Of a DNA stretch of 37,599 bases, positions 4,036-28,309 are shown one piece after another (the stretch's first letter is position 1; the number at the start of each line of letters is the position of its first letter). A program made the translations under genes and the position numbers. The notes beneath the pieces are model-generated. The model was not told the DNA's origin, did no database searches, and worked only from the letters and a program-made list of their open reading frames with translations. This DNA comes from an uncultured Candidatus Saccharibacteria bacterium (GTDB lineage: Bacteria; Patescibacteriota; Minisyncoccia; Phycocordibacterales; DATDWN01). The stretch is taken from contig CAYVMP010000006.1 in the NCBI GenBank assembly GCA_964452635.1, forward strand, positions 1 to 37,599, in the 5' to 3' direction.

Positions 4036-6177
4036 ATGTCTAAAGAATCTGAAAAAAAAGTGAAAAAGGACACGCCCACCAACGCTAAAGCTAAGGTGGA
4101 CACGTACGGAGCGGATGCAATCCAGATTTTGGAGGGTCTTGAACCCGTACGAAAGCGTCCTGGAATGTACATTGGTACGACTGGTCCAGACGGTCTTCAT
4201 CACCTTATTTGGGAAATTTTCGATAACTCACGTGACGAAGCCATGGGTGGTCATGCAAATGACATTGAGGTTACACTTTTGCCCAACAACCGTATCCGTG
4301 TTACGGACAATGGTCGTGGTATTCCAGTAGATATTCATAAACAGACCAAGGTGTCTGCGCTTGAAACCATTATGACAACACTCCACGCAGGAGGAAAGTT
4401 TGGTGGTGAAGACGGTGGCTACAAAGTGTCTGGAGGTCTGCACGGCGTGGGAGCATCGGTAGTTAACGCACTCTCTATTTATTGTAAAGTAACTGTTCAT
4501 AAGGACGGAGGTGTGTACATGCAGGAGTACTCTCAAGGCAAGAAAAAAGCACTTGTAAAGAAGATTGGAAGTACTAAAGAACAGGGAACGATTGTTCTCT
4601 TTGAACCTGATACAGCAATCTTTCAATCAGTTGAGTTTGATTTTGACCGAGTGGTCAACCATTTGCGCCAGCAGGCGTATCTCGTGAAGGGCTTGCGGAT
4701 TACAGTCAACGATGCACGTGAATATGCAGGAAAAATAAAAGAGGACGATACATTTAAAATATCTGAGCTTGGGTTGGAAATCCCATCAATGTCATTCTAT
4801 TTCGAAGGAGGTTTACTCTCTCTCGTCAAATTCTACAATAGTACTCAAAAACCGATTCATAAAAATATTTTCTATATTGAGAAAAATACAAACGAGTATG
4901 AGTCTGTTGAGGTATCCCTTCAGTACGTTGACGATATCTCATGTCGAATACTTCCATTTGCAAACAATATTTATAACCCCGAAGGAGGTACGCATGTAAC
5001 GGGATTTAAAACCGCACTGACACGTATTTTGAATGCGTACGCTCGTAAAAATAATTTGATAAAAGAAAGTGAAGATAACTTCACTGGTGACGATGTTCTC
5101 GAGGGTTTGACCGCAGTAATCTCCGTGAAGCTACGAGAGATTCAGTTCGAAGGTCAGACTAAAGCAAAACTCGGTACTGTCGAGGCACAGAGTTCAGTCA
5201 ACACAGTATTCTCTGAAGGATTCACATACTTCCTCGAGGAGAACCCAGATGATGCTCGATCAATCATTTCTAAAGTAGTTCTCGCACTCAAAGCTCGAAA
5301 GGCTGCAAAGGCTGCAAAGGATTCCGTGCTCCGTAAGGGTGTGCTTGAAGGTATGACACTCCCTGGTAAACTTGCCGACTGTCAGTCAAAGAGTTCTGAG
5401 GATTCTGAGCTCTTCATTGTGGAGGGAGATTCTGCAGGTGGTACTGCAAAGACTGGTCGTGATCGACGCACACAGGCGATACTTCCACTTCGAGGAAAGA
5501 TTCTTAACATTGAACGTGCACGTCTCGACCGAATGCTTGAGTCAGAACAGATCAAAAATCTCGTGCTTGCACTTGGAACTGCTATTGGTGATACGTTTGA
5601 TATTGCAAAACTTCGATATCACAAAGTGATTATTGCTACCGATGCAGACGTGGACGGTGCGCATATTCGAACATTGATTCTCACACTTTTTTATAGATTT
5701 TTCCGACCGCTTATTGATGGGGGATTCATATATATTGCTCAACCACCACTCTATAAAATAAAGAAAGGCAAGGAGGTCCACTACGCATATTCAGATGAGG
5801 AGAAGGCGGGTATTGTCGGAAAAGCTGAAGTCGCTGAGATTGGAGAAATCAGCGAGGAAGACCTTGCCCTGCGTAGCTCAAGTGAAGCGCAGAGCGAAGC
5901 AGGGGAAGATGCTGACACTCCTGCTTCGCCAAAGGCTTCGCAGGATAAAGCTAAAGCTTTGAAGATCTCTATTCAACGATACAAAGGTCTCGGAGAGATG
6001 AATGCTGAGGAACTCTGGGAGACAACGATGGACCCTGCTCGTCGAATACTCAAACAAGTTACTGTTGAGGATGGTGTGTCTGCTGACAAGGTATTCGATA
6101 TTCTCATGGGAAGTGACGTTCCATCTCGAAAGTCGTTCATTCAATCAAACGCAACTAAGGCAAATCTTGATATATAA
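4036..6177 (+). CDS. gyrB: DNA gyrase subunit B, with a ~35-40 aa low-complexity insertion in the C-terminal linker that contains a repeated palindromic element
   Basis: The ATPase (GHKL), transducer and Toprim domains are recognisable, including EGDSAGG, PLRGKILN and IQRYKGLGEMN motifs. The linker between YAYSDEE and IQRYKGLGEM is ~60 aa, versus ~20 aa in typical GyrB. Confidence 0.95.
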   Translation: MSKESEKKVKKDTPTNAKAKVDTYGADAIQILEGLEPVRKRPGMYIGTTGPDGLHHLIWEIFDNSRDEAMGGHANDIEVTLLPNNRIRVTDNGRGIPVDIHKQTKVSALETIMTTLHAGGKFGGEDGGYKVSGGLHGVGASVVNALSIYCKVTVHKDGGVYMQEYSQGKKKALVKKIGSTKEQGTIVLFEPDTAIFQSVEFDFDRVVNHLRQQAYLVKGLRITVNDAREYAGKIKEDDTFKISELGLEIPSMSFYFEGGLLSLVKFYNSTQKPIHKNIFYIEKNTNEYESVEVSLQYVDDISCRILPFANNIYNPEGGTHVTGFKTALTRILNAYARKNNLIKESEDNFTGDDVLEGLTAVISVKLREIQFEGQTKAKLGTVEAQSSVNTVFSEGFTYFLEENPDDARSIISKVVLALKARKAAKAAKDSVLRKGVLEGMTLPGKLADCQSKSSEDSELFIVEGDSAGGTAKTGRDRRTQAILPLRGKILNIERARLDRMLESEQIKNLVLALGTAIGDTFDIAKLRYHKVIIATDADVDGAHIRTLILTLFYRFFRPLIDGGFIYIAQPPLYKIKKGKEVHYAYSDEEKAGIVGKAEVAEIGEISEEDLALRSSSEAQSEAGEDADTPASPKASQDKAKALKISIQRYKGLGEMNAEELWETTMDPARRILKQVTVEDGVSADKVFDILMGSDVPSRKSFIQSNATKANLDI
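5865..5904. repeat. 40-nt palindrome-ended element, tgccctgcgtagctcaagtgaagcgcagagcgaagcaggg, inserted in-frame in gyrB and encoding ALRSSSEAQSEAG. An identical copy sits at 17574-17613 in smc. Further GCGAAGC/GCTTCGC palindromes follow in gyrB up to ~5942
   Basis: The 40 nt are identical at both loci. The ends are inverted repeats (ccctgc / gcaggg), and the 10-bp inverted repeat gcgaagcagg / cctgcttcgc lies at 5893-5926. Confidence 0.8.
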
Positions 6178-6186
6178 AAATAAATA

Positions 6187-6216
6187 CCTCACTCACGACG
6201 AGTGGGGTATTTTTTC
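6187..6216 (+). terminator. gyrB intrinsic terminator (cctcactc acgacg agtgggg + TATTTTTT)
   Basis: Stem-loop followed by a T-run directly after the gyrB stop. Confidence 0.65.
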
Positions 6217-6483
6217 AAAACTTTCAACAGTCATGACTTTGCGTTCTGACGCATTAAGCCATATTTCCACTTGGTCGGTATACTCCGACCTTAGTAACGG
6301 ATTTCGTTCATCCGCATGATCAATCTTTACCCAACTATCTTCGAATGTTGGGTAGGTACTGGTTATAGACTTGATATGGGTAGTAATGCTTGGTGTCACC
6401 CAAAATAAACTAACTCTGTACAACGTACACCTCCTTTCCAAGGTTACTGTGGTACAGGTCGTCTGTCAAATTTTTGCAACTAA

Positions 6484-11200: not shown

Positions 11201-11507
11201 TGAGGTTTTTGTATCCAGTGTCGTTGACTGCAAGGAGCACAAGACGATACCGCTCTTTGTCGATTTGCTGTTTGTCGTGTCGGCTTCTGTATGCAACGTA
11301 CGCATCAATACCGATGATTGGTTTAATTTCTTTTTTCTTGCATGCTTGGTAGAACTCGATTGCTCCGTATAGGTTACAGTTGTCTGTCAGTGCAATAGCA
11401 GACATGTCATTTTTCTTTGCTTCTGCGACGAGGTCGGGAATTTTAGGTAGTGCGTTAAGCAGGGAGTAGTGGGAGTGGGTATGAAGATGGATAAATTTGG
11501 ATGACAT
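8280..11507 (-). CDS. dnaE: DNA polymerase III alpha subunit
   Basis: The 1075-aa protein has an N-terminal PHP domain (HLHTHSHYSLLNA), a polymerase core and a C-terminal OB domain. Confidence 0.95.
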   Translation of the reverse strand: MSSKFIHLHTHSHYSLLNALPKIPDLVAEAKKNDMSAIALTDNCNLYGAIEFYQACKKKEIKPIIGIDAYVAYRSRHDKQQIDKERYRLVLLAVNDTGYKNLIKLVTLAHMEGFYYKPRIDRELLETYHEGLIAISPSFTGDIVQSVKLSHTEQALERVAWYKKVFGVDANGEPNFYIEITHHPEIKGHEETMQKLITFARETQTPIVASHDVYYLEPEDRVARQTLMSIQSQTDEKIEVTDEDFSFITEKQAEKYFKNIPDALENTVKIADRCNLEISIGKWSLPNYIVPSGRSYDDELRFITENGIATRGLERTPELLERMEYELSIIKDKGYAPYFLVVSDLLNFAHENGILTTIRGSVAGSLVTYLSHITNVNPLEYNLPFERFLNPSRPSAPDIDMDYADNRRDEVIEYARQKYGIDKVAQIGTFGTMAARGAVRDVTRALGFPYGVGDTIAKLIPMGAQGFPMTIERALKEVPELKQMYTTEPDTKTIIDMAQKIEGSARHISVHAAGVVISPTPLTDFTPLQYDTKGDQKVITQYDMHSVGEDGVGLLKFDFLGIRNLAILADAVKIVEKIEHTHIDIENVPVDDKKTFEMLARGETIGLFQLNGDGMTRWLKELRPTTIHDINVMVALYRPGPMDNINEYVARKHGKKPITYMHPKMKNFLDRTFGVLVYQDDLLMTAIEVAGYTWGEVDKFRKAVGKKIREEMAKQHIKFVEGCQTHGGMTAEKAEQIWDLFEPFQGYGFNKAHAASYGKVAYQTAYMKANFPAIYMSAVLTAESGDVDMISEIVSECKRMGIPVLPPDVNESFEGFTVVKGDEKDSIRFGLTTIKNFGEGIGTFIISERKKNGRFVSLSDFLRRITDKNLNKKSLESLIKAGALDSFALSTPHIPASEYRATLLHNLETLLMFNKEERVRETAQDSLFSLMSGGDVVTEITLVPAPTGTSANNLMWEKELLGLYISGHPLDSFKEKLDKREMTIRKIKETAKEKQPIVVGGIIEEIKPVVTKKGDKMIFMKIADMTDSIEAVAFPKIFEEFQDILVPEGCVVIKGTFSTRNDGKSILVDKVKVLE

Positions 11508-11517
11508 GGTGGTTGGA

Positions 11518-11710
11518 TTTTAAAAAATAATTTCTTTCTCACCACTTCATTTTGAGAGACCCCGTCTCGGCGTGCTCGCCGATCGGTTGCCTCGAAAATC
11601 TAAGAAAACAATGTCCTCGACCGTGTACCATTCACGGTCTCGTCCTTGTTTTCTAAATTTTATGCGAAGTCTCTCAAAATGAAGTGATTCAACGAAATTA
11701 TTTTTTAAAA
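11518..11710. repeat. Structured intergenic element, copy A (~190 nt). Arms of ~35 bp form an imperfect inverted repeat (11526-11560 versus 11669-11702) enclosing a ~105-nt core with two local hairpins. Related to the copy at 24755-24925 and to a miniature copy at 1115-1170
   Basis: The left arm, aataatttctttctcaccacttcattttgagagac, pairs with the right arm, gtctctcaaaatgaagtgattcaacgaaattatt, with an internal 8x7 loop. The core hairpins are cggcg-tgct-cgccg and ccgtg-taccatt-cacgg. Confidence 0.6.
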
Positions 11711-11761
11711 CTATCATATTGTACCATGTCATCCAAAGTTGTGGTGAGGGGGGTGTTTTAT

Positions 11762-15543: not shown

Positions 15544-15636
15544 CCAATATGTTTTTGGCATATGCCGCAACGCGTGAAGACGTGAGGTTAAGGAAAAATC
15601 GTAGCAACGATTTATTCCGGTGCCAAAAACATATTG
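15544..15636 (+). promoter_or_regulatory. Perfect 17-bp inverted repeat, ccaatatgtttttggca / tgccaaaaacatattgg, enclosing 58 nt in the smc leader
   Basis: Read directly from the sequence. It ends 34 nt upstream of the smc ATG. Confidence 0.5.
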
Positions 15637-18014: not shown

Positions 18015-18638
18015 ATGTCCAATAAGTTTCTGGGGGTGCCTAAACCCTTTAAACTCCCACTGTTGGAGGAAAGATTGTGTGAACATAAAATCCCTACATT
18101 ATGGGATGATTCGATGTCTATCGGGTTATATATGGTGTACGCCACTGACGATGATGGACAAGAGAATTTGGAGGAGTTTTGTAAAAAACATCCTTCTAAA
18201 AAATACTTGGTTAGCATGAGTGAATTTGTGCTGACCTGTATTCAAGGAGTTCTGTTTGTGCTTTTTTTGGTAATACCCGCGTCTACAATAGGGAAACCCA
18301 GTATTCCTCAGAATGTCGCTTTGTCCATTATCGAGATGATTATATTAGCTGTGTTCATTTTCTCCCCTAGTTACATAAAGAAGTTGCAGTATACTTTGCG
18401 TGGGAGAGGATGGTCGGAATCTAACCCAGCACTGTTTGCCCATGAGCATCCAATGGATGTTATCAAGCAAATCTGCGGGTGTTCTACAGATGACTGTACT
18501 CACTCACCATTTAATTTCTTGGTGTCGCACCACCCAAGAAATCCTACTCGATTCCTGTCTGTTAAGGGACCAGATACTGGTCCTGCGAGAGTGTACTTCC
18601 TCGCTTCGTGGGAAAAACCATCAGAAAAATCAGAGTAG
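18015..18638 (+). CDS. Small membrane protein, paralog 1 (207 aa), with two predicted TM helices and a Cys/His-rich C-terminal region (ICGC...C.H...HHPRNPTRFLSV...YFLASWEKPSEKSE)
   Basis: RBS GGAGGT; promoter TTGATT-N16-TAGAAA; its own terminator at 18648-18676. Confidence 0.7.
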   Translation: MSNKFLGVPKPFKLPLLEERLCEHKIPTLWDDSMSIGLYMVYATDDDGQENLEEFCKKHPSKKYLVSMSEFVLTCIQGVLFVLFLVIPASTIGKPSIPQNVALSIIEMIILAVFIFSPSYIKKLQYTLRGRGWSESNPALFAHEHPMDVIKQICGCSTDDCTHSPFNFLVSHHPRNPTRFLSVKGPDTGPARVYFLASWEKPSEKSE

Positions 18639-18676: not shown

Positions 18677-18766
18677 ATATCAATCCGTAGCGAGAATTTC
18701 ATCAAAAATCTTTCTACCTTGATTATTTTGTAAAAAAGTGTAGAAATATGGGTGGAGGTACGTGAA

Positions 18767-19405
18767 ATGTCAGATAAGTTTACGGGTACGTTTAAGCCCT
18801 TCGAGTACCCAGCGTTGGAGTTGGAACACCGTCTCCATAGTCGTAGCGTAGTGGTATCTGAAGAGCCATCTCAAGTGGTTCTGTATATGGTGTACGGTAA
18901 GGATTATGATGCACTTGCAAACCGAGAGGAGTTTTGTGAAAAACATCCTTTCCAGAAGTATTTTGTTGGAATGAGTGAGTTCGCGTATGCTTCCTTTATC
19001 CTTCTTGTTGGCTTATTGTTTCTGTTTACAACTGTCATAGCCTTTACTGGAGAACGAGGATTCACTACCCAGAACATACTAAAAAGCATTTTTATGATAG
19101 TTGTGATTTATCTCTGTATTTTTTCCCCCAGATACATAGAAAGACTAAACCATTCTTTGGAGGGTAGGGAATGGACGACTTCCCCTCCATCACATTTTAC
19201 CAATGAGAATTCGATGGATAGCATGAAAATAATCTGTGGTTGTCTCGATGCGGTTTCAAAATGTGCTCACCCAGGGTTTATTTTTAAGGTGTGGCACCAC
19301 CCACGCAATCCTACTCGGTTTCTGTCGGTTGAAAGTGTTCGTTCTGAAGGCAGAAGAAGATATTTCCTCGCCTCGTGGGAAAAACCATCAGAAAAATCAG
19401 AGTAG
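18767..19405 (+). CDS. Small membrane protein, paralog 2 (212 aa) of the same family. The start is the ATG after GGAGGT, not the upstream GTG
   Basis: It shares the N-terminal MS.KF.G..KPF, LYMVY, EEFC.KHP, FSP.YI, ICGC and HHPRNPTRFLSV...YFLASWEKPSEKSE motifs with paralog 1. Confidence 0.7.
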   Translation: MSDKFTGTFKPFEYPALELEHRLHSRSVVVSEEPSQVVLYMVYGKDYDALANREEFCEKHPFQKYFVGMSEFAYASFILLVGLLFLFTTVIAFTGERGFTTQNILKSIFMIVVIYLCIFSPRYIERLNHSLEGREWTTSPPSHFTNENSMDSMKIICGCLDAVSKCAHPGFIFKVWHHPRNPTRFLSVESVRSEGRRRYFLASWEKPSEKSE

Positions 19406-19414
19406 AGTAGATAT

Positions 19415-19446
19415 CCTCCGGTACACGCCGGGGGATTTGTTTTTTT
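19415..19446 (+). terminator. Intrinsic terminator of paralog 2, convergent with the rnr 3' end
   Basis: Identical hairpin plus T-run. Confidence 0.6.
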
Positions 19447-21385
19447 ACACCAATCCGTAGTCGAGAACACGACGTTCCATATCTGCAGAGATAACCTTGA
19501 ATCTGAGTGTGTCACCGAGTGTGAATTTCTTGCCACTTTTTTCACCTTTGAGAGTGTAGTTTTTTTCATCGAGTGTGAAGAAATCATCTCCAAGATCACG
19601 GAGCTTTATCATTCCCTCACATTTAGTTTCTTTCTCTTCGATGTAGATGCCCCATTCAGTTACACCCGTGATAGTTCCATCAAATGTTTCTCCGACATGT
19701 TCCTGCATGTACTCAACTTGTTTGTATTTAATAGACGAGCGTTCTGCATCCGATGCTCGTTTTTCATTTTCACTTGATTCGAGACAGATTCGTTCGTATT
19801 TTTCAAATTCATTTGGTTCGATTTTGCCACCCTTGAGTTCTCGTTCGAGGAAACGGTGTACGAGAAGATCGGGGTATCGACGAATTGGAGATGTAAAGTG
19901 TGTGTAGTATGTGAACGCAAGCCCGAAGTGTCCGATATTTTTCGTTGAGTAGACGGCCTTTGCCATACTCCGGATCGTTGCCGTTTTGATAAGTTCTTCG
20001 TTGCTACTTCCTTCGACATCCTTGAGTAGTTCGTTGATATCTCGAGAGGTAACTTTGCCCTCTTTATTGTGCAAATCAAACCCAAGTGCTTTGAGAAATA
20101 CCGCAAGGTTTTCGATGCGTTCTGTATCGGGAGTATTATGTATTCGGTACACTGACTGTGCACCCTTTTTAGAAATATTTTCCTTTTGAGATTTGAATAC
20201 AAACTCAGCAACAGCACGGTTGGCAAGGAGCATGTATTCCTCAACAAGTTTATGAGTATCAAGTCTCTGTTTTCGATACACACGTATTGGTTTGCCTTTC
20301 TCATCGAGGACGAACTTCACTTCATCTGTTTCGAAATTGATCGCACCATTTTCGAATTTTTTCTTTTCAAATATTTTTGCAATTCGATGGAGTGTTCGGA
20401 GTTCTGTTTGGAATGGTCCGTCGAGCTCACCATCAATCACTTTCTGTGCATCTTCGTATGTAAATCTGCGATCACTGTGGATGATTGTTCGCCCAAACCA
20501 TTGATCGATAATTGTGCCGTGTGTATCTATTTTAAATACTGCAGAGAATGTGTATTTGTCTTCGTTTGGGTTGAGTGAACAGAGGTCGTTTGAGAGAACT
20601 TCTGGGAGCATTGGGATGGTGCGGTCGACGAGATATACGGAGAGCCCGCGTTTTTCTGCCTCACGATCAAGCTCGGTACCGGGGGTAACGAAATATGACA
20701 CATCTGCAATGTGCACGCCGATTTCGTACGTGTCATCACCAAGGTCAACAAATGAAATCGCATCATCAAAATCCTTGGCATCTGCTGGGTCAATGGTCAT
20801 TGTGGTAGTAGAGCGCATGTCACGGCGGTTTTTGATTTCAGTTTCAAATGTAGTCGGGTATTTCTGTTTGAGGAGTTCAGCTTCTGCTTCGACGGTGAGA
20901 GGGAATTCAACTCGAAAACCCTTTTCGAGAACAATCGCTTCCATTTCTGTATTGTTTTCTCCGGATGCGCCAATGATTTTGGCGACGGTACCCATGAGTC
21001 GAGTTGTACTTGCCTCCCAATCTATTTCGACGAGAACTTTTGTGCCTTCTGGGATCTTTGCTTCCTCGTCGGTAGGTAGGAAAATATCTGCATACATGCG
21101 TTTGTCATCTGGGACTACATACGTTCCAGCATCACCGTGTACTACAGTGCCGACATACTCATTTTTAGTACGAGTGACTACACGCACCACCTTTCCTTGG
21201 TCTCGGTTTTTGATTTTCTCTCCTGTTGCCTCGATTTCAACAATGTCTCCGTGAAATGCACGGTTTACATACTCGGGTTGAATCTCGATACTATCAGTTT
21301 TCTTTTTATTTTCTGGATCGAGATCAAAAAAACCAACTCCTTTGGAATTGATACTAATCGCTCCAGTGAATCGTTTGCCTTTCAT
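19445..21385 (-). CDS. rnr: Ribonuclease R (RNase II family 3'-5' exoribonuclease)
   Basis: The RNB catalytic domain sits between N-terminal cold-shock/OB folds and a C-terminal S1 domain. An extended −10, TGtTATACT, lies upstream (~21400-21415 on the − strand). Confidence 0.9.
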   Translation of the reverse strand: MKGKRFTGAISINSKGVGFFDLDPENKKKTDSIEIQPEYVNRAFHGDIVEIEATGEKIKNRDQGKVVRVVTRTKNEYVGTVVHGDAGTYVVPDDKRMYADIFLPTDEEAKIPEGTKVLVEIDWEASTTRLMGTVAKIIGASGENNTEMEAIVLEKGFRVEFPLTVEAEAELLKQKYPTTFETEIKNRRDMRSTTTMTIDPADAKDFDDAISFVDLGDDTYEIGVHIADVSYFVTPGTELDREAEKRGLSVYLVDRTIPMLPEVLSNDLCSLNPNEDKYTFSAVFKIDTHGTIIDQWFGRTIIHSDRRFTYEDAQKVIDGELDGPFQTELRTLHRIAKIFEKKKFENGAINFETDEVKFVLDEKGKPIRVYRKQRLDTHKLVEEYMLLANRAVAEFVFKSQKENISKKGAQSVYRIHNTPDTERIENLAVFLKALGFDLHNKEGKVTSRDINELLKDVEGSSNEELIKTATIRSMAKAVYSTKNIGHFGLAFTYYTHFTSPIRRYPDLLVHRFLERELKGGKIEPNEFEKYERICLESSENEKRASDAERSSIKYKQVEYMQEHVGETFDGTITGVTEWGIYIEEKETKCEGMIKLRDLGDDFFTLDEKNYTLKGEKSGKKFTLGDTLRFKVISADMERRVLDYGLV

Positions 21386-21497
21386 GTGAGATTAGTATAA
21401 CAGATTGGACACATTTTACCTACTGTCTTGTAAAAGAGCTATACTGAGCCATATTATATAATTCTAAAAAAGTATTTTGATTTTCATATAAATTTGC

Positions 21498-21526
21498 TTG
21501 ACAAAAAATTGAAAGGGTGCTACTAT
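21498..21526 (+). promoter_or_regulatory. Strong sigma70-type promoter: −35 TTGACA (21498-21503), 17-nt spacer, −10 TACTAT (21521-21526)
   Basis: Consensus −35 with ideal spacing; it drives the GC-rich noncoding segment downstream. Confidence 0.6.
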
Positions 21527-21534
21527 ATACCCAT

Positions 21535-21740
21535 AATGATCTTTCAAAATTTTTCGTTCGGCGTACGAACTACGCCACGCACAGGCTTACCCGGTCACCT
21601 GACCGGGGCCCACTAGGGGCTTAAACTAGCAACTTGTCTCGCGCAAGCTCGAGATCGCCAACATGGCCCGAATCGCCATGCTGGCAGCGGATCCCGAGTC
21701 TTGTAGAGACAAAGAGGGCAGGAGAAATCCTGCCCTTTTC
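21535..21740 (+). ncRNA. Unidentified ~200-nt GC-rich structured ncRNA with its own promoter and intrinsic terminator (gggcagg agaaat cctgccc TTTT, 21714-21740). The ORFs called here on both strands are probably spurious
   Basis: Multiple stable hairpins are visible: cccggtc-acct-gaccggg at 21590-21607, catggc-ccgaatc-gccatg at 21662-21680, and ggcgta/tacgcc. It is 57% GC in a 42% GC genome, with no credible coding potential. Confidence 0.5.
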
Positions 21741-21785
21741 CATATATAAATTTACAATTTTTTCCTTTTACAAAAAGGGTATCTG

Positions 21786-21794
21786 TGGTATCAT
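21786..21794 (+). promoter_or_regulatory. Extended −10 promoter (TGgTATCAT) upstream of the uvrA leader
   Basis: A TGn + TATCAT element; the same TATCAT hexamer is used at 26755 and 27044. Confidence 0.4.
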
Positions 21795-21860
21795 AATGCT
21801 CACTATATATGCAGTACGCCCGTCCGCGGGTCTGTTTGTGTATGTGTACGTTATGTAGAC

Positions 21861-22051
21861 AGTTTTCAAAATTCGTCGAGTGCACTTACTGTTCTGGCAC
21901 ATTGCGCAGTCAATTAGAAAACAACTGTGGGCGAGTGATGGGAACACGAGATCCGCATCTTGTTTTCTTGATTGGCGAGCGTGAGGAAAATTTCTAGCAA
22001 GAAATTATTCCGGTGACAGAACAGTAAGTGTCGAGACAAATTTTGAAAACT
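21861..22051 (+). promoter_or_regulatory. Long-range inverted repeat in the uvrA 5' leader. The arms agttttcaaaatt...cacttactgttctg (21861-21896) and cagaacagtaagtg...aattttgaaaact (22017-22051) enclose ~120 nt and end 12 nt before the uvrA ATG
   Basis: The 13-bp and 14-bp perfectly complementary segments are separated by a 9-nt mismatch loop in each arm. Confidence 0.5.
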
Positions 22052-22062
22052 ATCCAATTTTT

Positions 22063-24693
22063 ATGAAACCCAACCCAAAACAAAACGAACTCATTATCGT
22101 CAAAGGAGCACGAACACACAACCTTAAAAACATTACGGTTGAAATGCCTCGCAATAAAATGATTGTCTTTACTGGTCTCTCGGGTTCCGGCAAATCATCA
22201 CTTGCATTCGATACGATATTTGCAGAAGGTCAGCGTCGATACGTGGAGTCACTTTCGTCCTATGCGCGACAATTTCTCCGACAGATGCAAAAGCCGGATG
22301 TAGATGAAATCGTCGGACTCTCACCAGCTATCTCTATTGATCAGAAATCTCGTTCGAACAACCCACGTTCGACTGTGGCGACGATTACAGAAATCTACGA
22401 CTACCTCCGTATTCTCTACGCACGTATCGGTCATCCACACTGTCTCGTGTGTGGGAGAGAAATCACTAAACTTTCAAACGAAGAAATTAAAAACTTTATT
22501 CTCGGGAAAATCAGTGAGCAGACCAAGCTCATGAAGAAATCAGAAAAGAAAATCCCATTTCCAATGTATGTTGAACTGTTTGCTCCTGTTGTCCGTGGTC
22601 GCAAGGGTGAGTACTATCAACTCCTCTATGATTTACTCGGCAAGGGATACACACATGTTCTCATTGATGGTGAGCGAAAATCTCTTCGAGAGAGAGTTGA
22701 ACTTTCAAAGACGAAACGACACACAATAGATGTGCTCGTGGACAGTCTCTCGCTTTCTGATTTTACAACTGATATGAAAAGTGCTGAGGAGCGTTTGGCG
22801 GAAAGTCTCGAAAAAGCACTCAATGAGTCAGATGGTCAGGTGAAAATACTATTTCGAGATATTGGACGTGAATCTGAAAAAGAATACAAACCAGAAGAAT
22901 TTTTCATGTCTTCAAAACTTTCATGTCCGCACGATGGGTACTCATATCCAGAGGTTGAGCCACGGTTATTTTCATTTAACTCTCCATACGGAGCGTGTTC
23001 AGAGTGTAATGGTTTAGGAACACGGCATTTCTTTGGCAATGAAGTCTGTCCTAAATGTAAGGGTGCACGACTTCGTGAGGAGGCCCTCCATGTGCTCATC
23101 GGGGGGAAGAATATCGTTGATCTTACTGCATCATCTATCAAGGATGCACATACATTTTTCGATACACTCAAACTAACAGACCGTGAGAAAAATATTTCCA
23201 AAGTTGTCATGCGAGAAATTGAATCTCGACTTCTCTTTATGATAAATGTCGGTATTGAGTACCTCTCACTCTCGCGACGTGCACACACGCTCTCTGGTGG
23301 TGAGGCACAGCGTATTCGACTTGCAAGCCAGCTCGGATCAGGACTGGTTGGTGCACTCTATGTACTCGATGAACCGACGATTGGACTGCACTCACGAGAC
23401 AATGATCGTCTCATTCAGACACTCATTGATTTGAAAAATCTTGGTAACACTATTATCGTTGTCGAACACGATGAGGATACTATTTTTGCATCTGACTATA
23501 TTGTTGATATTGGTCCGGGTGCTGGTCGGCACGGTGGGGATGTTGTCGTGTCTGGATACCTCGATGAACTTTTGACTGCAAAGAAAAACACATCGGGTTC
23601 GCTGACACTCGACTATTTGCGAGGGGATAAAATAGTAGAACTTCCTGAGAAAAGACGTGATACACCAAAAGGTGAGTTGCAGATTCGTGGTGGAAATATT
23701 TTTAATATTAAAAATATGAACGTTGATATTCCACTTGGACGACTCATTGTGGTGACGGGAGTGTCCGGTTCAGGCAAATCATCCTTTGTGTATGAGATTT
23801 TAAATAAAAATTTGCAGGCTCGGTTTGAGCGCAAGTATCGGAGTGCAGAAATATACAACTGCAAAAGCTTTACTGGTACGGAATATCTTGGTCGCTCTAT
23901 TTTGATTGATCAGAGTCCTATTGGACGTACTCCACGAAGTAACCCTGCGACATACACTGGTAGTTGGTCGTTCATACGGGATCTCTTTGCAGAGACATCA
24001 GAAGCACGTGCTCGCGGATGGAAGGCAAATAGATTTTCTTTCAATGTGAAGGGGGGACGATGCGAGACGTGTCAAGGTAACGGCATGATTGAGGTGGAAA
24101 TGCATTTCCTTCCGACAGTATATGTACCGTGTGATGTGTGTAAGGGCAAGCGGTTTATGAAAGAGACACTCGAAGTACAGTACAAAAAGAAAAATATCTA
24201 CGATATTTTGAAAATGACTGTTGAGGAGGCACTTACATTTTTCAATGATATTCCTACAATCTACGACAGACTCAAAACACTTGATGAGGTTGGGCTTGGC
24301 TACCTCGAACTCGGACAGTCTGCAACGACGCTCTCCGGTGGTGAGGCACAGCGTGTAAAGATTTCATCCGAGTTGTACCGACCACATTTACAGAAAACAA
24401 TGTATCTGCTCGACGAACCGACAATCGGTTTGCACTACGAAGATGTGAAGAAACTAATTGAGATTGTTCAGAAATTAGTAGACAAGGGAAACACAGTGCT
24501 CATTATTGAACACAACATGGATGTCATTAAATCTGCTGACTATCTACTCGACATTGGTCCAGAAGGTGGTGAGGGCGGGGGACAGCTTGTAGCAAAGGGA
24601 ACTCCGGAGGAGGTTGCAAATAGTGAGAAGAGTCACACAGGGAAGTATTTGAAGAAGGCGTTGAAGCAGTATAGGGCGTATAGGAAATCCTAG
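22063..24693 (+). CDS. uvrA: Excinuclease ABC subunit A
   Basis: Two ABC ATPase modules are present ([18 protein letters not shown], twice LSGGEAQR), with zinc-finger Cys clusters. Confidence 0.95.
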
Positions 24694-24754
24694 ATTCTGA
24701 TACGGTACATTTCCGAGCACGTATAAGGGAACACTTAGCTCTTCCTCGGTAGTA

Positions 24755-24925
24755 AAAAAATTACAGTAATTTCTTTCTCACCATCTATTTTCTCCAGACC
24801 GCGTCCTCGCCCGGGAGCGAGTCGCTTGCCTCGTCATTCATAAGAAAATGTAAAGTGGAATACCACTAACATTTTCTAAAATGACTGCGAAGTCTTGCAA
24901 AAATAGATGGTTCGACGAAATTATA
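24755..24925. repeat. Structured intergenic element, copy B. The left arm is taatttctttctcaccatctattttctccagac (24767-24799) and the right arm is gtcttgcaaaaatagatggttcgacgaaatta (24892-24923). It has the same architecture as copy A, and the conserved motifs are shared
   Basis: It shares AATTTCTTTCTCACCA, TTGCCTCG, TTTTCTAAA and TTCRACGAAATTA with copy A. The stem positions differ from copy A but remain complementary within copy B. Confidence 0.6.
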
Positions 24926-24943
24926 AAATTACTTGAGTTTGTA

Positions 24944-24976
24944 AAATAAAAAGGTGCCGGTTTCTCGGACACCTTT
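24944..24976 (-). terminator. Intrinsic terminator for the − strand gene 24998-25264 (caaaggtg tccgagaaaccgg cacctt + TTTTT)
   Basis: Hairpin plus T-run on the − strand. Confidence 0.6.
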
Positions 24977-24997
24977 GGAATTCCTAATCTAATATTC

Positions 24998-25264
24998 TTA
25001 AGCAAGTAGTTCTAAAAATTTGTTAACATCAGATATTTTTTGAAATAAAAGTTTTGGTGATGATGGGATATCTGTTCTGTCAATAGTATCCAACCATTTG
25101 TTTAATAGTATTACTGCTTCCGGATGAATTTCTTGGGTTGATCTCTGTGCGCCATCTGTCCGGCTATGGTGATTTTTGGACATATAGATTTTTTCTCCAT
25201 CCCAAGCATTCAAGACTGCGCCAGTGTACGCAGCCATTTCCTCAACCTTTTCTTTGTGTGTCAT
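24998..25264 (-). CDS. Hypothetical protein (88 aa)
   Basis: A good RBS (GGAAGGAG) lies 8 nt upstream of the ATG, and a terminator follows downstream. Confidence 0.5.
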   Translation of the reverse strand: MTHKEKVEEMAAYTGAVLNAWDGEKIYMSKNHHSRTDGAQRSTQEIHPEAVILLNKWLDTIDRTDIPSSPKLLFQKISDVNKFLELLA

Positions 25265-26619: not shown

Positions 26620-26731
26620 ATTTTTCAAATACTCATAAACAACTCATTTTTTTGAGAATTCTAAAAAATGTTGAAAAATAAAGGCTTTTTGAAATTCATT
26701 CTGATGATTTTGATTTTTCCCTGAAAATTAG

Positions 26732-26760
26732 TTGACAGAAAATACTGGGTGTGCTATCAT
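26732..26760 (+). promoter_or_regulatory. Promoter: −35 TTGACA (26732-26737), 17-nt spacer, −10 TATCAT (26755-26760)
   Basis: Consensus −35 with ideal spacing. Confidence 0.6.
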
Positions 26761-26766
26761 TATTTC

Positions 26767-27010
26767 CAGTGAGCCTCTGCAGGGGACGGTACCAATGTCC
26801 TGCCATTGGTACTGAAGAACAAACAAAAGCAGGTTTGCCGGCTGATCCTGAAGGAATTCCAAGTCTTCTTTTGGGGCATATAAATGTCGGTAATAATAAT
26901 GAGCTTGGGACAAGTGGGTTGCGTCCAAAACGGGGCGCCCAAATGGCGTCAGTGACCCACGGGGTCGGGTAAGTATCGAGTAAATCTCGAAAACTGCCCG
27001 GCCCTTTTTC
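26767..27010 (+). ncRNA. Unidentified ~240-nt structured ncRNA bounded by its own promoter and an intrinsic terminator (ggggtcggg ... cccggccc TTTTT, 26961-27010). It is separate from proS, which has its own promoter after the terminator
   Basis: A 9-bp hairpin, gtaccaatg-tcctgc-cattggtac, lies at 26790-26813. The GGAATTCC palindrome and a GC-rich 3' domain are also present. Overlapping ORFs have no RBS. Confidence 0.45.
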
Positions 27011-27020
27011 ATATCAATTT

Positions 27021-27049
27021 TTGACCGACCATCATTTTTCCTATATCAT
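27021..27049 (+). promoter_or_regulatory. proS promoter: −35 TTGACC, 17-nt spacer, −10 TATCAT (27044-27049). The ATG at 27056 lies ~7 nt downstream, so the mRNA is leaderless or nearly so
   Basis: Based on the spacing of the −10 element to the start codon; no Shine-Dalgarno sequence is present. Confidence 0.5.
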
Positions 27050-27055
27050 GTGGGT

Positions 27056-28309
27056 ATGCGACAATCCCATCTATTTACAAAAACACGCAAGGAAGTGCCT
27101 GCAGATGAGTCAAGTAAAAATGCTCAACTTCTCATCAAGGCAGGCTTTATACATAAAGAAATGGCAGGAGTGTATTCTCTTCTACCACTTGGGTTCACAG
27201 TAGTCCAAAAAATTAAAAAAATCATTGCTGATGAAATGGAAGCACTCGGCTCTCAGGAGATTATCATGTCTACACTTCAGAGTAAGGAAGTGTGGGAGAA
27301 AACCGATCGATGGAGTGATGATAAAGTGGATGTGTGGTTTAAATCGAAATTGAAAAATGACACCGAAGTTGGTTTCGGATGGTCGCATGAGGAGCCGATT
27401 ACCTCGATGATGACATCACACATTGCAAGCTACCACGACCTTCCACGTGTCGTGCATCAATTCCAAAACAAACTTCGCAACGAAACACGTGCGAAGAGTG
27501 GCATCATGCGATGTCGAGAGTTTGTCATGAAGGATATGTACTCCTACTCACAGGATGAAGCACAGCACATGGATTTCTATACAAAAGCCACTCAGGCATA
27601 TCTCACGGTGTTCAAACGTGTCGGTCTTGGAGATATTACATTTGTAACATCTGCATCGGGTGGAGTGTTTACTGATAAATTTAGTCACGAATTTCAGACG
27701 CTCTGCGAGGCTGGTGAAGACAATATATATGTACACACAGACGGTGTGATTGCTCTTAACGAGGAAATTTTTAATGATGAAACTCTCTCAAAAATGGGAA
27801 TGCAGAAATCTGATTTTGAAATGAAGAAAGCGGCTGAAGTTGGAAATATTTTTACATTTGGAACGAAAAAGTGTCAGGAGCTTGATCTCTACTATACAAA
27901 TGAGGCGGGTGAGAAAACCCCAGTATTTCTGGGCTCCTATGGTATTGGTGTCACTCGTCTCATGGGAGTGATTGCAGAAGTGTGTTCGGATGAAAAGGGG
28001 TTGATGTGGCCAACAGAGGTCGCTCCATTCGCTGTGCATCTTGTTCGTCTTGGAAATTCACCGGAGACACTCGCTGAGGCGGATGCACTGTATGCGAGTC
28101 TCCGTAAACAATCAATTGAAGTGCTCTATGACGATCGTGATATGCGACCAGGGGAAAAGTTTGCTGACGCGGATCTCATCGGTATCCCGATTCGTCTCGT
28201 TGTGTCTGACAAAACAGTCGCACAGAATAAAGTCGAGATGAAATACCGATCGAGTACCGAGTCCGAGTTGGTGAGTGTAGAGGAGGTGATGAAGGTGGTA
28301 ATAAATTAA
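27056..28309 (+). CDS. proS: Proline--tRNA ligase, bacterial type lacking the INS editing domain
   Basis: MRQSHLF...EVPADE...GVYSLLPLGF is the conserved N-terminus. The class II motifs are present and the length of 417 aa means no insertion domain. Confidence 0.9.
   Translation: MRQSHLFTKTRKEVPADESSKNAQLLIKAGFIHKEMAGVYSLLPLGFTVVQKIKKIIADEMEALGSQEIIMSTLQSKEVWEKTDRWSDDKVDVWFKSKLKNDTEVGFGWSHEEPITSMMTSHIASYHDLPRVVHQFQNKLRNETRAKSGIMRCREFVMKDMYSYSQDEAQHMDFYTKATQAYLTVFKRVGLGDITFVTSASGGVFTDKFSHEFQTLCEAGEDNIYVHTDGVIALNEEIFNDETLSKMGMQKSDFEMKKAAEVGNIFTFGTKKCQELDLYYTNEAGEKTPVFLGSYGIGVTRLMGVIAEVCSDEKGLMWPTEVAPFAVHLVRLGNSPETLAEADALYASLRKQSIEVLYDDRDMRPGEKFADADLIGIPIRLVVSDKTVAQNKVEMKYRSSTESELVSVEEVMKVVIN

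Follow-up and report, generated by a model that had tools for sequence, protein, structure and literature searches.

A candidate fast-evolving small RNA gene with a conserved promoter in the rnr-uvrA gap of a Patescibacteria contig

Introduction

Patescibacteria (candidate phyla radiation, CPR) have tiny genomes with few recognisable regulators, and, to our knowledge, their regulatory RNAs are almost unexplored. Here, we analysed the complete contig CAYVMP010000006.1 (37.6 kb; 37,599 nt in full, 42.5% GC), a Paceibacteria fragment of this lineage that is referred to as the window throughout. The element in question, termed unit 1, is a GC-rich stretch at positions 21535-21740 between rnr, which encodes RNase R, and uvrA. 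Judged from its sequence and from the corresponding loci of related bacteria, we lean towards unit 1 being an independently transcribed, lineage-restricted and fast-evolving small non-coding RNA (sRNA) gene.

Results

Promoter, fold and terminator of unit 1

The gap between rnr and uvrA, which spans 677 nt and is the largest of the contig, holds unit 1 on the uvrA strand (Table 1). An earlier note, made by reading the sequence, had described a near-consensus TTGACA-17-TACTAT promoter, a GC-rich segment full of stable hairpins and a clean terminator at this place. The promoter was found as described, and an extended -10 TG can be added to it, so that it combines 10 of 12 consensus matches with an extended -10 element. 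On both strands of the window, three sites with at least 10/12 matches plus TG occur, compared to a mean of 0.97 in shuffled sequences. Besides the promoter of unit 1, these comprise the uvrA promoter, which lies 270 nt downstream, and a site at 26732. The -35 element is preceded by an AT-rich block at the position of an upstream promoter (UP) element, and the promoter block shared by the relatives described below consists of an UP-like ATTTTGATTTTT, the -35 element and the extended -10 element. The A/T block, which spans about -60 to -40 and is also seen in the related locus L109 (GAAAAATTATTTTGATTTTTCT), resembles the UP element of Escherichia coli rrnB P1, and together with the consensus -35 and the extended -10 element it likens the promoter of unit 1 to stable-RNA promoters of the rrnB P1 type. 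As a difference, the block is not used by the single tRNA gene that was seen in a related locus, and the strength of the unit 1 promoter is a predicted one.

The GC content amounts to 54.9% over 21535-21740 and to 59.1% over 21555-21740, compared to 28.6% and 35.7% in the two flanks and to 38.3% and 43.3% in the intergenic and coding DNA of the window, respectively. Folding gave a minimum free energy (MFE) of -93 kcal/mol, with z = -6.9 for the plus strand and z = -6.3 for the minus strand. When the whole window was scanned in 535 sliding windows of 210 nt (mean z -0.66, standard deviation 1.63), unit 1 ranked as the second most structured region (z = -8.9). The hairpin-rich character proposed earlier was thus borne out. 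Both the MFE and the centroid structure form a chain of five or six independent hairpins, and the ends of the RNA are joined by 2 bp in the MFE structure and by none in the centroid, so that there is neither a closing stem nor a central bubble. MFE and centroid differ in the 5' part, where two small hairpins exclude each other. The GC-rich hairpin H2 has the 9-mer TGACCGGGG in common with the terminator of L109, which is not significant. A 14-nt direct repeat (period 18 nt) within the long interrupted hairpin H4 was the only one that the repeat search of unit 1 returned, and Tandem Repeats Finder (TRF, minimum score 30) reported no tandem repeats in unit 1. Within H4, the heptamer AUCGCCA recurs with the same 18-nt period at 21654 and 21672, with AUCCCGA at 21690 (21654-21696); we judged this periodicity to be a by-product of the quasi-palindromic GCCA/UGGC stem.

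At the 3' end, the two arms AAGAGGGCAGGA and UCCUGCCCUUUU form a strong terminator-like hairpin with a GAAA loop (12 bp, 92% complementary, about -20 kcal/mol). It is followed by a U-tract of four U, and the plus strand narrowly fails the rule of the terminator scanner, whereas the minus strand is scored as a terminator. To call the terminator clean was therefore slightly generous. We infer that unit 1 is transcribed, with termination at the hairpin, and that its product is the RNA itself.

The promoter is shared with related species, the transcript body is not

The neighbourhoods of the closest homologues of rnr and uvrA were among the loci compared. The closest relatives of RNase R are found in metagenome-assembled genomes of Patescibacteria, Parcubacteria and Paceibacteria with at most 80% identity, and those of UvrA in the same groups with 88-90% identity at best. 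In most relatives the synteny differs, as rnr is divergent from rpsP-khpA or from another gene and uvrA is preceded by uvrB. The rnr/uvrA junction is present as well in the metagenome contig L109, which belongs to the same species as L083, L099 and L091 and whose rnr and uvrA are 79% and 90% identical to those of the window. Its rnr/uvrA gap of 840 nt carries TTGACA-16-TGcTATAGT (11/12) at the place equivalent to unit 1. The predicted transcript of about 205 nt has 57-60% GC and z = -8.7 and ends in a canonical terminator, followed by a uvrA promoter and leader. In a third species, represented by L001 (rnr 78% identical), the promoter block with TTGACT-TGaTAAGCT adjoins rnr; here, the unit comprises about 85 nt of about 50% GC without an ATG, ends in a canonical terminator and is followed by a gene whose start is unlike that of uvrA and which has no uvrA match. 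Both L109 and L001 keep the -35 element and TGnTA.

The upstream block of unit 1 aligns with L109, L001 and a second place in the window, 26691-26769 (nhmmer, E = 5.6e-13 to 2.7e-16). Each pair of promoter blocks scores above 300 of 300 shuffles, with nhmmer E-values down to 1e-22. The transcript bodies of the window, L109 and L001 are unalignable and score like random sequence, and no motif beyond chance is common to the three. As the promoter is still recognisable where the bodies cannot be aligned, it is under selection. The GC-rich structured bodies amid flanks of 29-36% GC are read as the outcome of selection on composition or structure, or of recent replacement. Enriched k-mers shared with the related loci proved to be chance matches to coding sequence and were discarded.

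The same pattern might be explained if the conserved element were the promoter/terminator pair and the RNA itself were without function. Next to rnr, a strong divergent promoter could be kept to serve locally, for example in supercoiling or insulation, or be the relic of a rearranged operon; any filler ending in a terminator would shield uvrA from read-through, and its body would drift or be replaced freely. This main rival to an sRNA gene accounts for the restriction of conservation to the promoter block among window, L109 and L001, for body lengths from 85 to 205 nt, for the position of unit 1 at a synteny breakpoint and for the similar-looking promoters at the leaderless protein genes of the lineage. 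However, a neutral filler should drift to 29-38% GC, whereas the bodies of unit 1 and L109 have 54-60% GC with z = -7 to -9. Furthermore, a terminator needs about 30 nt rather than 200, and the same contig contains a paralogous unit (unit 3, see below). We grant this explanation a modest share of the probability.

Unit 1 and uvrA appear to be separate units

Unit 1 lies on the same strand as uvrA, 320 nt upstream of the gene, and its weak U-tract could permit read-through. Together with the two mutually exclusive hairpins in its 5' part, this would fit a cis-acting uvrA 5' leader or attenuator with riboswitch-like or protein-controlled termination. However, an extended -10 promoter with 10/12 matches, TTTACA-16-TGgTATCAT, lies between the terminator and uvrA. 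It has a counterpart in L109 (TATACA-16-TGaTACAAT), and because of this separate promoter unit 1 is not simply the 5' untranslated region of uvrA. The L001 promoter unit precedes a gene without a uvrA match, by eye nothing upstream complements the 5' arm of the terminator stem and no antiterminator was seen, and conservation is lacking in the body of unit 1, in contrast to the adjacent uvrA leader element. A riboswitch, T-box or attenuator leader was also rejected as no cis-regulatory family in Rfam gave a match above noise and uvrA has its own promoter. We conclude that unit 1 appears to be independent of uvrA, whose own promoter is conserved, and regard a leader function as quite improbable.

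Coding potential

Three open reading frames (ORFs) overlap the GC-rich part of unit 1, at 21634-21858 on the plus strand and at 21613-21885 and 21621-21743 on the minus strand; none of them is called as a gene and none is present in the protein collection. The earlier note had seen no credible ORF and had dismissed two overlapping ORFs on opposite strands as artefacts. The absence of the opposite-strand ORFs from the protein collection agrees with that view, which had missed a 26-codon ORF starting 3 nt past the predicted transcript start. Several genes look leaderless, their -10 element lying 6-9 nt ahead of the start codon (rnr, 21386-21400; hisS, 27043-27058), and in relatives (L138, 3973-4000) rpsP and rnr diverge across 28 nt so that the -35 element of rpsP overlaps the first rnr codons. 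The 26-codon ORF matters because rnr and hisS look leaderless in this lineage.

Unit 1 might be a small protein gene whose leaderless mRNA encodes the 26-aa peptide or the product of another short ORF. The start codon of the 26-codon ORF is located 10 nt past the -10 element, a spacing near that of leaderless rnr and hisS; relatives encode hydrophobic peptides of 33-71 aa in the same slot upstream of uvrA, behind uvrB; and unit 3 holds a full-length ORF of 67-73 codons. Against this stands that the 26-aa peptide is not hydrophobic and spans the first 40% of the transcript, and that neither a Shine-Dalgarno site nor a conserved ORF was found in unit 1. The L109 unit has no equivalent ORF and the L001 unit no ATG at all, tblastx against the orthologous gap was blank in the body, and the ORF of unit 3 has no homologue. 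By its sequence, the unit is non-coding in at least one orthologue (L001), and a small protein gene is unlikely. Neither a coding remnant of the neighbouring genes nor one of the small ORFs of relatives was detected in unit 1 by tblastx. Likewise, an rpsP (S16) pseudogene remnant, considered since rpsP is divergent from rnr in other relatives, left no trace in tblastn.

In relatives with a uvrB-uvrA-uvrC order, the gap between uvrB and uvrA is a hypervariable slot (L086 3466-4000, L088 3694-4000, L089 3596-4000 and L092 3083-3540). Its units are GC-enriched and encode one or two hydrophobic peptides of 33-71 aa with Shine-Dalgarno sites. The peptides look unrelated between species by eye and could be small membrane proteins of a toxin-like or damage-related kind. 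These slot units resemble unit 1 in lying immediately upstream of the uvrA promoter, in being GC-enriched and highly variable and in having their own promoter and terminator. They differ in their Shine-Dalgarno sites and hydrophobic ORFs, which are absent from unit 1 and its counterparts in L109 and L001, and in their promoters, which are unlike that of unit 1 and overlap the end of uvrB.

Unit 1 matches no RNA family in Rfam

We searched the models of Rfam 15 over the whole window at gathering score, and the region 21350-22100 at E<=10 with permissive filters (4227 models). There was no match at gathering score in the whole window, and noise only at E<=10 in the rnr/uvrA gap. An E<=10 search of the L109 gap, unit 3 and the copies of unit 2 (see below) likewise returned only noise, and ARAGORN predicted neither a tRNA nor a transfer-messenger RNA (tmRNA) in the window. 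The earlier note had proposed an Rfam search for housekeeping RNAs and had described unit 1 as an RNA with its own promoter and terminator that could not be matched by eye to signal recognition particle (SRP) RNA, RNase P RNA or tmRNA. Within the reach of sequence analysis, both the negative searches and the conservation of the promoter in two further species agree with this reading. No support was found for its suggestion of a 6S-like RNA.

Unit 1 could still be a diverged housekeeping RNA (6S, SRP, RNase P or a piece of tmRNA) or an RNA-guide array. For stable RNAs such as 6S, a length of about 205 nt and a strong promoter would fit, and unit 1 also resembles 6S RNA in being GC-rich and non-coding in appearance. 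However, 6S RNA (RF00013) gave no model match, the independent hairpins lack the closing stem and central bubble, one orthologue measures about 85 nt, and no structure is common to the unit 1 orthologues. Helix 8 (domain IV) of SRP RNA has a GNRA loop and a conserved AGCAGC side; the apical loop of H4 is CCGAAUC and not GNRA, and no SRP family of Rfam matched. RNase P RNA, with its conserved P4 and core regions, was rejected as there was no Rfam match and the transcript of about 205 nt compares with an expected length above about 270 nt, and tmRNA, which combines a tRNA-like domain (acceptor and T-arm) with a tag reading frame, as both ARAGORN and the tmRNA families of Rfam were negative. In addition, a housekeeping RNA would be expected to align between species with 90% identical UvrA, which the bodies do not.

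With regard to RNA-guide arrays, TIGR arrays (for tandem interspaced guide RNA) alternate repeats of 8-12 nt and spacers of 9 nt in tandem, or consist of tandem box C/D stem-loops. The arrays of TIGR-Tas systems are reported in CPR bacteria and phages, can be made up of variable hairpins and have a rho-independent terminator at the end (PMC12045711). Unit 1 shares with them the CPR host, a variable, hairpin-rich and non-coding predicted transcript and the putative terminator at its end, and the AUCGCCA repeat in H4 has a superficial likeness to their repeat spacing. It differs in that it has no repeat/spacer organisation and sits among housekeeping genes. A Nop domain was not found in the 37.6 kb contig, where the folds of a 207-aa and a 217-aa protein were not modelled, and no Nop-domain Tas gene adjoins unit 1. 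The TIGR array was rejected for want of periodicity in TRF and because the contig showed neither a Nop-domain protein nor a large one without annotation. We therefore hold a diverged housekeeping RNA or a guide array to be highly improbable.

Unit 3 and unit 2, two further structured units of the window

The second place in the window with a promoter block of the unit 1 type heads a paralogous unit 3. Its promoter comprises an UP-like ATTTTGATTTTT, TTGACA at 26732 and TGcTATCAT up to 26760. The predicted transcript of about 245 nt is unrelated to unit 1 (z = -4.0), ends in ...GCCCGGCCCUUUUUCAUAU with a terminator just upstream of leaderless hisS, and has no Rfam match. The source annotation calls an antisense ORF of 94 aa here, which is a singleton and likely to be an artefact.

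Between the uvrA promoter and uvrA lies unit 2, a rod-shaped leader and the most structured region of the contig (z = -9 to -12.6). It belongs to a conserved multi-copy Paceibacteria element that has no Rfam match and consists of three parts, namely an outer stem of 12-25 bp with variable sequence, a helix of CAUCGCG/GAGCGCGA and a hairpin whose loop is Y-AGCA-R. With a covariance model, the first 91 sources yielded 25 copies, and 11 further ones came from later loci. Changes on both sides are seen at each of the 28 modelled pairs, and 90.5% of the cells are paired compared to 59% in shuffles, in an alignment that was fitted to the model and so favours the modelled structure. Apart from the copies in the window and L109 (Table 1), copies occur just after rnr in L007, L008 and L011 and after uvrA in L084-L087; L030 has two copies, and L094 and L100 have three each. 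Outside the window and L109, the copies follow genes on their 3' side or are antisense to genes. With its AGNN-type tetraloop at the end of a long duplex, the element resembles substrates of the yeast RNase III Rnt1p; this comparison is speculative. As a lead for RNA discovery, this covarying multi-copy leader element is more solid than unit 1. Unit 1 was also considered as a tandem duplicate of unit 2 and rejected: the direct repeats are short and colinear, and the alignment of the bodies does not exceed shuffles (z = 0.64).

Further intergenic stretches of the window fold with z between -5.6 and -7.7 and have no Rfam match (6161-6370, 24711-24990, 1121-1330 and 11481-11760). The uvrA-uvrC gap (24694-25137) is among the strongly folded stretches, and the unit 2 model has no match there.

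A generic scan for units that run from a strong promoter to a terminator returned about 14 in 858 kb of related loci (about one per 60 kb), none of them in Rfam. In more distant Paceibacteria, L032 1571-1787 (minus strand) and L034 2233-2500 (plus strand) are units of 180-230 nt with 53-54% GC, a strong extended -10 promoter and a terminator; they contain no long ORF and are not in Rfam.

The large ORFs of the contig (>220 aa) all encode housekeeping functions: pheT, gyrB, thrS, dnaE, rnhB, rpmF, nusB, rnc, smc, rnr, uvrA, uvrC, hisS, mreBC, PBP, greA and a class II aminoacyl-tRNA synthetase. Two ORFs between smc and rnr, 18015-18638 and 18752-19405 (207 aa and 217 aa), have no Pfam domain. 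They are missing at the equivalent place in L109 and L099, in both of which smc comes immediately after rnr, and the cluster of the 207-aa ORF is a near-singleton.

Table 1 Features at and around unit 1. Positions refer to the window, unless stated otherwise.
Feature	Position	Strand	Remarks
rnr (RNase R)	19445..21385	-	Divergent from unit 1; probably leaderless (TATACT, 8 nt, ATG)
AT-rich upstream promoter block	21461..21497	+	Contains conserved TATTTTGATTTT (21473-21484), about -60 to -49, UP-element position
Sigma-70-type promoter	21498..21526	+	-35 TTGACA 21498-21503, 17-nt spacer, TG 21518-19, TACTAT 21521-26
Unit 1, predicted transcript, ~205 nt	21533..21739	+	Start from promoter geometry, end from terminator
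26-codon ORF MIFQNFSFGVRTTPRTGLPGHLTGAH	21536..21616	+	ATG 3 nt past predicted start; leaderless peptide judged unlikely
Two mutually exclusive small hairpins	21556..21576	+	GUUCG-GCGUA-CGAAC or GGCGUA-CGAAC-UACGCC; MFE and centroid differ
Hairpin H2, CCCGGUC-ACCU-GACCGGG	21590..21607	+	7-bp GC-rich stem
Long interrupted hairpin H4, 78 nt	21634..21711	+	Apical loop CCGAAUC
Intrinsic-terminator-like hairpin AAGAGGGCAGGA-GAAA-UCCUGCCCUUUU	21712..21739	+	12 bp, 92% complementary, dG ~-20 kcal/mol
uvrA-leader promoter TTTACA-16-TGgTATCAT	21767..21794	+	Promoter scan; 10/12 matches, extended -10
Unit 2, rod-shaped structured uvrA leader	21858..22054 (core 21883-22028)	+	Multi-copy Paceibacteria element
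uvrA	22063..24693	+	Downstream of unit 1 and unit 2
Unit 3, paralogous	26691..27015	+	Unit 1-type promoter block 26691-26769, E = 2.7e-16
Unit 2-element copies, window	21858-22054; 15544-15635		Leaders of uvrA and smc
Unit 2-element copies, L109	2643-2764; 3298-3387		Precede rnr and uvrA

Discussion

Unit 1 matches the architecture of ordinary orphan sRNA genes and is a sound candidate for one. In the scenario that we favour, a strong sigma-70 promoter with an UP-like AT block, a consensus -35 and an extended -10 element would start transcription near 21533. The GC-rich transcript of about 205 nt would fold into five or six stable hairpins, and the hairpin followed by UUUU at 21712-21739 would release the RNA before the separate uvrA promoter. 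Our best guess is that the RNA may act in trans, as a regulatory or protein-binding sRNA, either through short motifs or through its generic stable structure.

Among the described trans-acting sRNAs that have a sigma-70 promoter and a Rho-independent terminator of their own, those of the RsaE/RoxS type of Firmicutes are similar in being stand-alone intergenic units, here of 85-205 nt, with a strong promoter, hairpins, a U-tract and no ORF. The unpaired C-runs of L109 and L001 (CCCC to CCCCCC) recall what we take to be the C-rich anti-Shine-Dalgarno motifs of RsaE and RoxS; unit 1 differs in having no clear unpaired C-runs. Furthermore, RsaE and RoxS are highly conserved, whereas the body of unit 1 is not conserved even between close relatives, and Rfam shows no sequence homology between unit 1 and described sRNAs. 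A literature search for sRNAs or structured RNAs of CPR bacteria yielded nothing specific.

Several observations weigh against an sRNA gene. The body of unit 1 was compared by nhmmer, blastn and tblastx with 140 related loci and has no homologue among them; the searches covered 80 rnr-anchored GTDB loci and 44 metagenome loci. With respect to conservation, which the earlier note had proposed to check in related genomes, the promoter was thus found to be kept in L109 and L001, while the body has no homologue and its positional orthologues are unalignable. The body has no BLAST match in phages and plasmids and no exact 31-mer in viral contigs, and a degenerate-pattern scan (frame-translated) of viral and metagenome contigs gave none among the matches listed, with the metagenome part being weak. 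A single-sequence covariance model of the unit 1 core finds only itself and nothing in the orthologous bodies. The orthologues are 205, 205 and 85 nt long and differ in their hairpin layouts, so that the sequence of the RNA may be free of constraint and the function may reside in the conserved promoter. In addition, the U-tract is short, and the minus strand folds almost as well as the plus strand, so that the strand is assigned only by the promoter and the terminator. As to possible targets, duplex energies between unit 1 and the start regions of 25 window genes were no better than those of shuffled controls, and the same applied to its 5' tail against the uvrA and rnr leaders of both species.

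Unit 1, unit 3 and the units of L109 and L001 may represent a 'cassette-like' class of CPR small RNAs, in which a selected frame of a very strong conserved promoter and a terminator surrounds a hypervariable GC-rich hairpin body that is swapped or changes extremely fast among close relatives. We consider such a class rather unlikely. If it existed, its RNAs might take part in an arms race, in the interaction of these episymbiotic bacteria with hosts or phages, or they might act as sponges for enzymes specific for structured RNA, such as the neighbouring RNase R.

What sets unit 1 apart is its CPR origin and the conservation of its promoter without that of the body. At 90% identity of UvrA, two species share the promoter and retain a GC-rich structure on unrelated sequence. 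This unusual pattern raises the question of whether the RNA or the act of transcription is the selected feature. If confirmed, a strongly expressed sRNA locus near RNase R and uvrA would be among the first CPR candidates to test.

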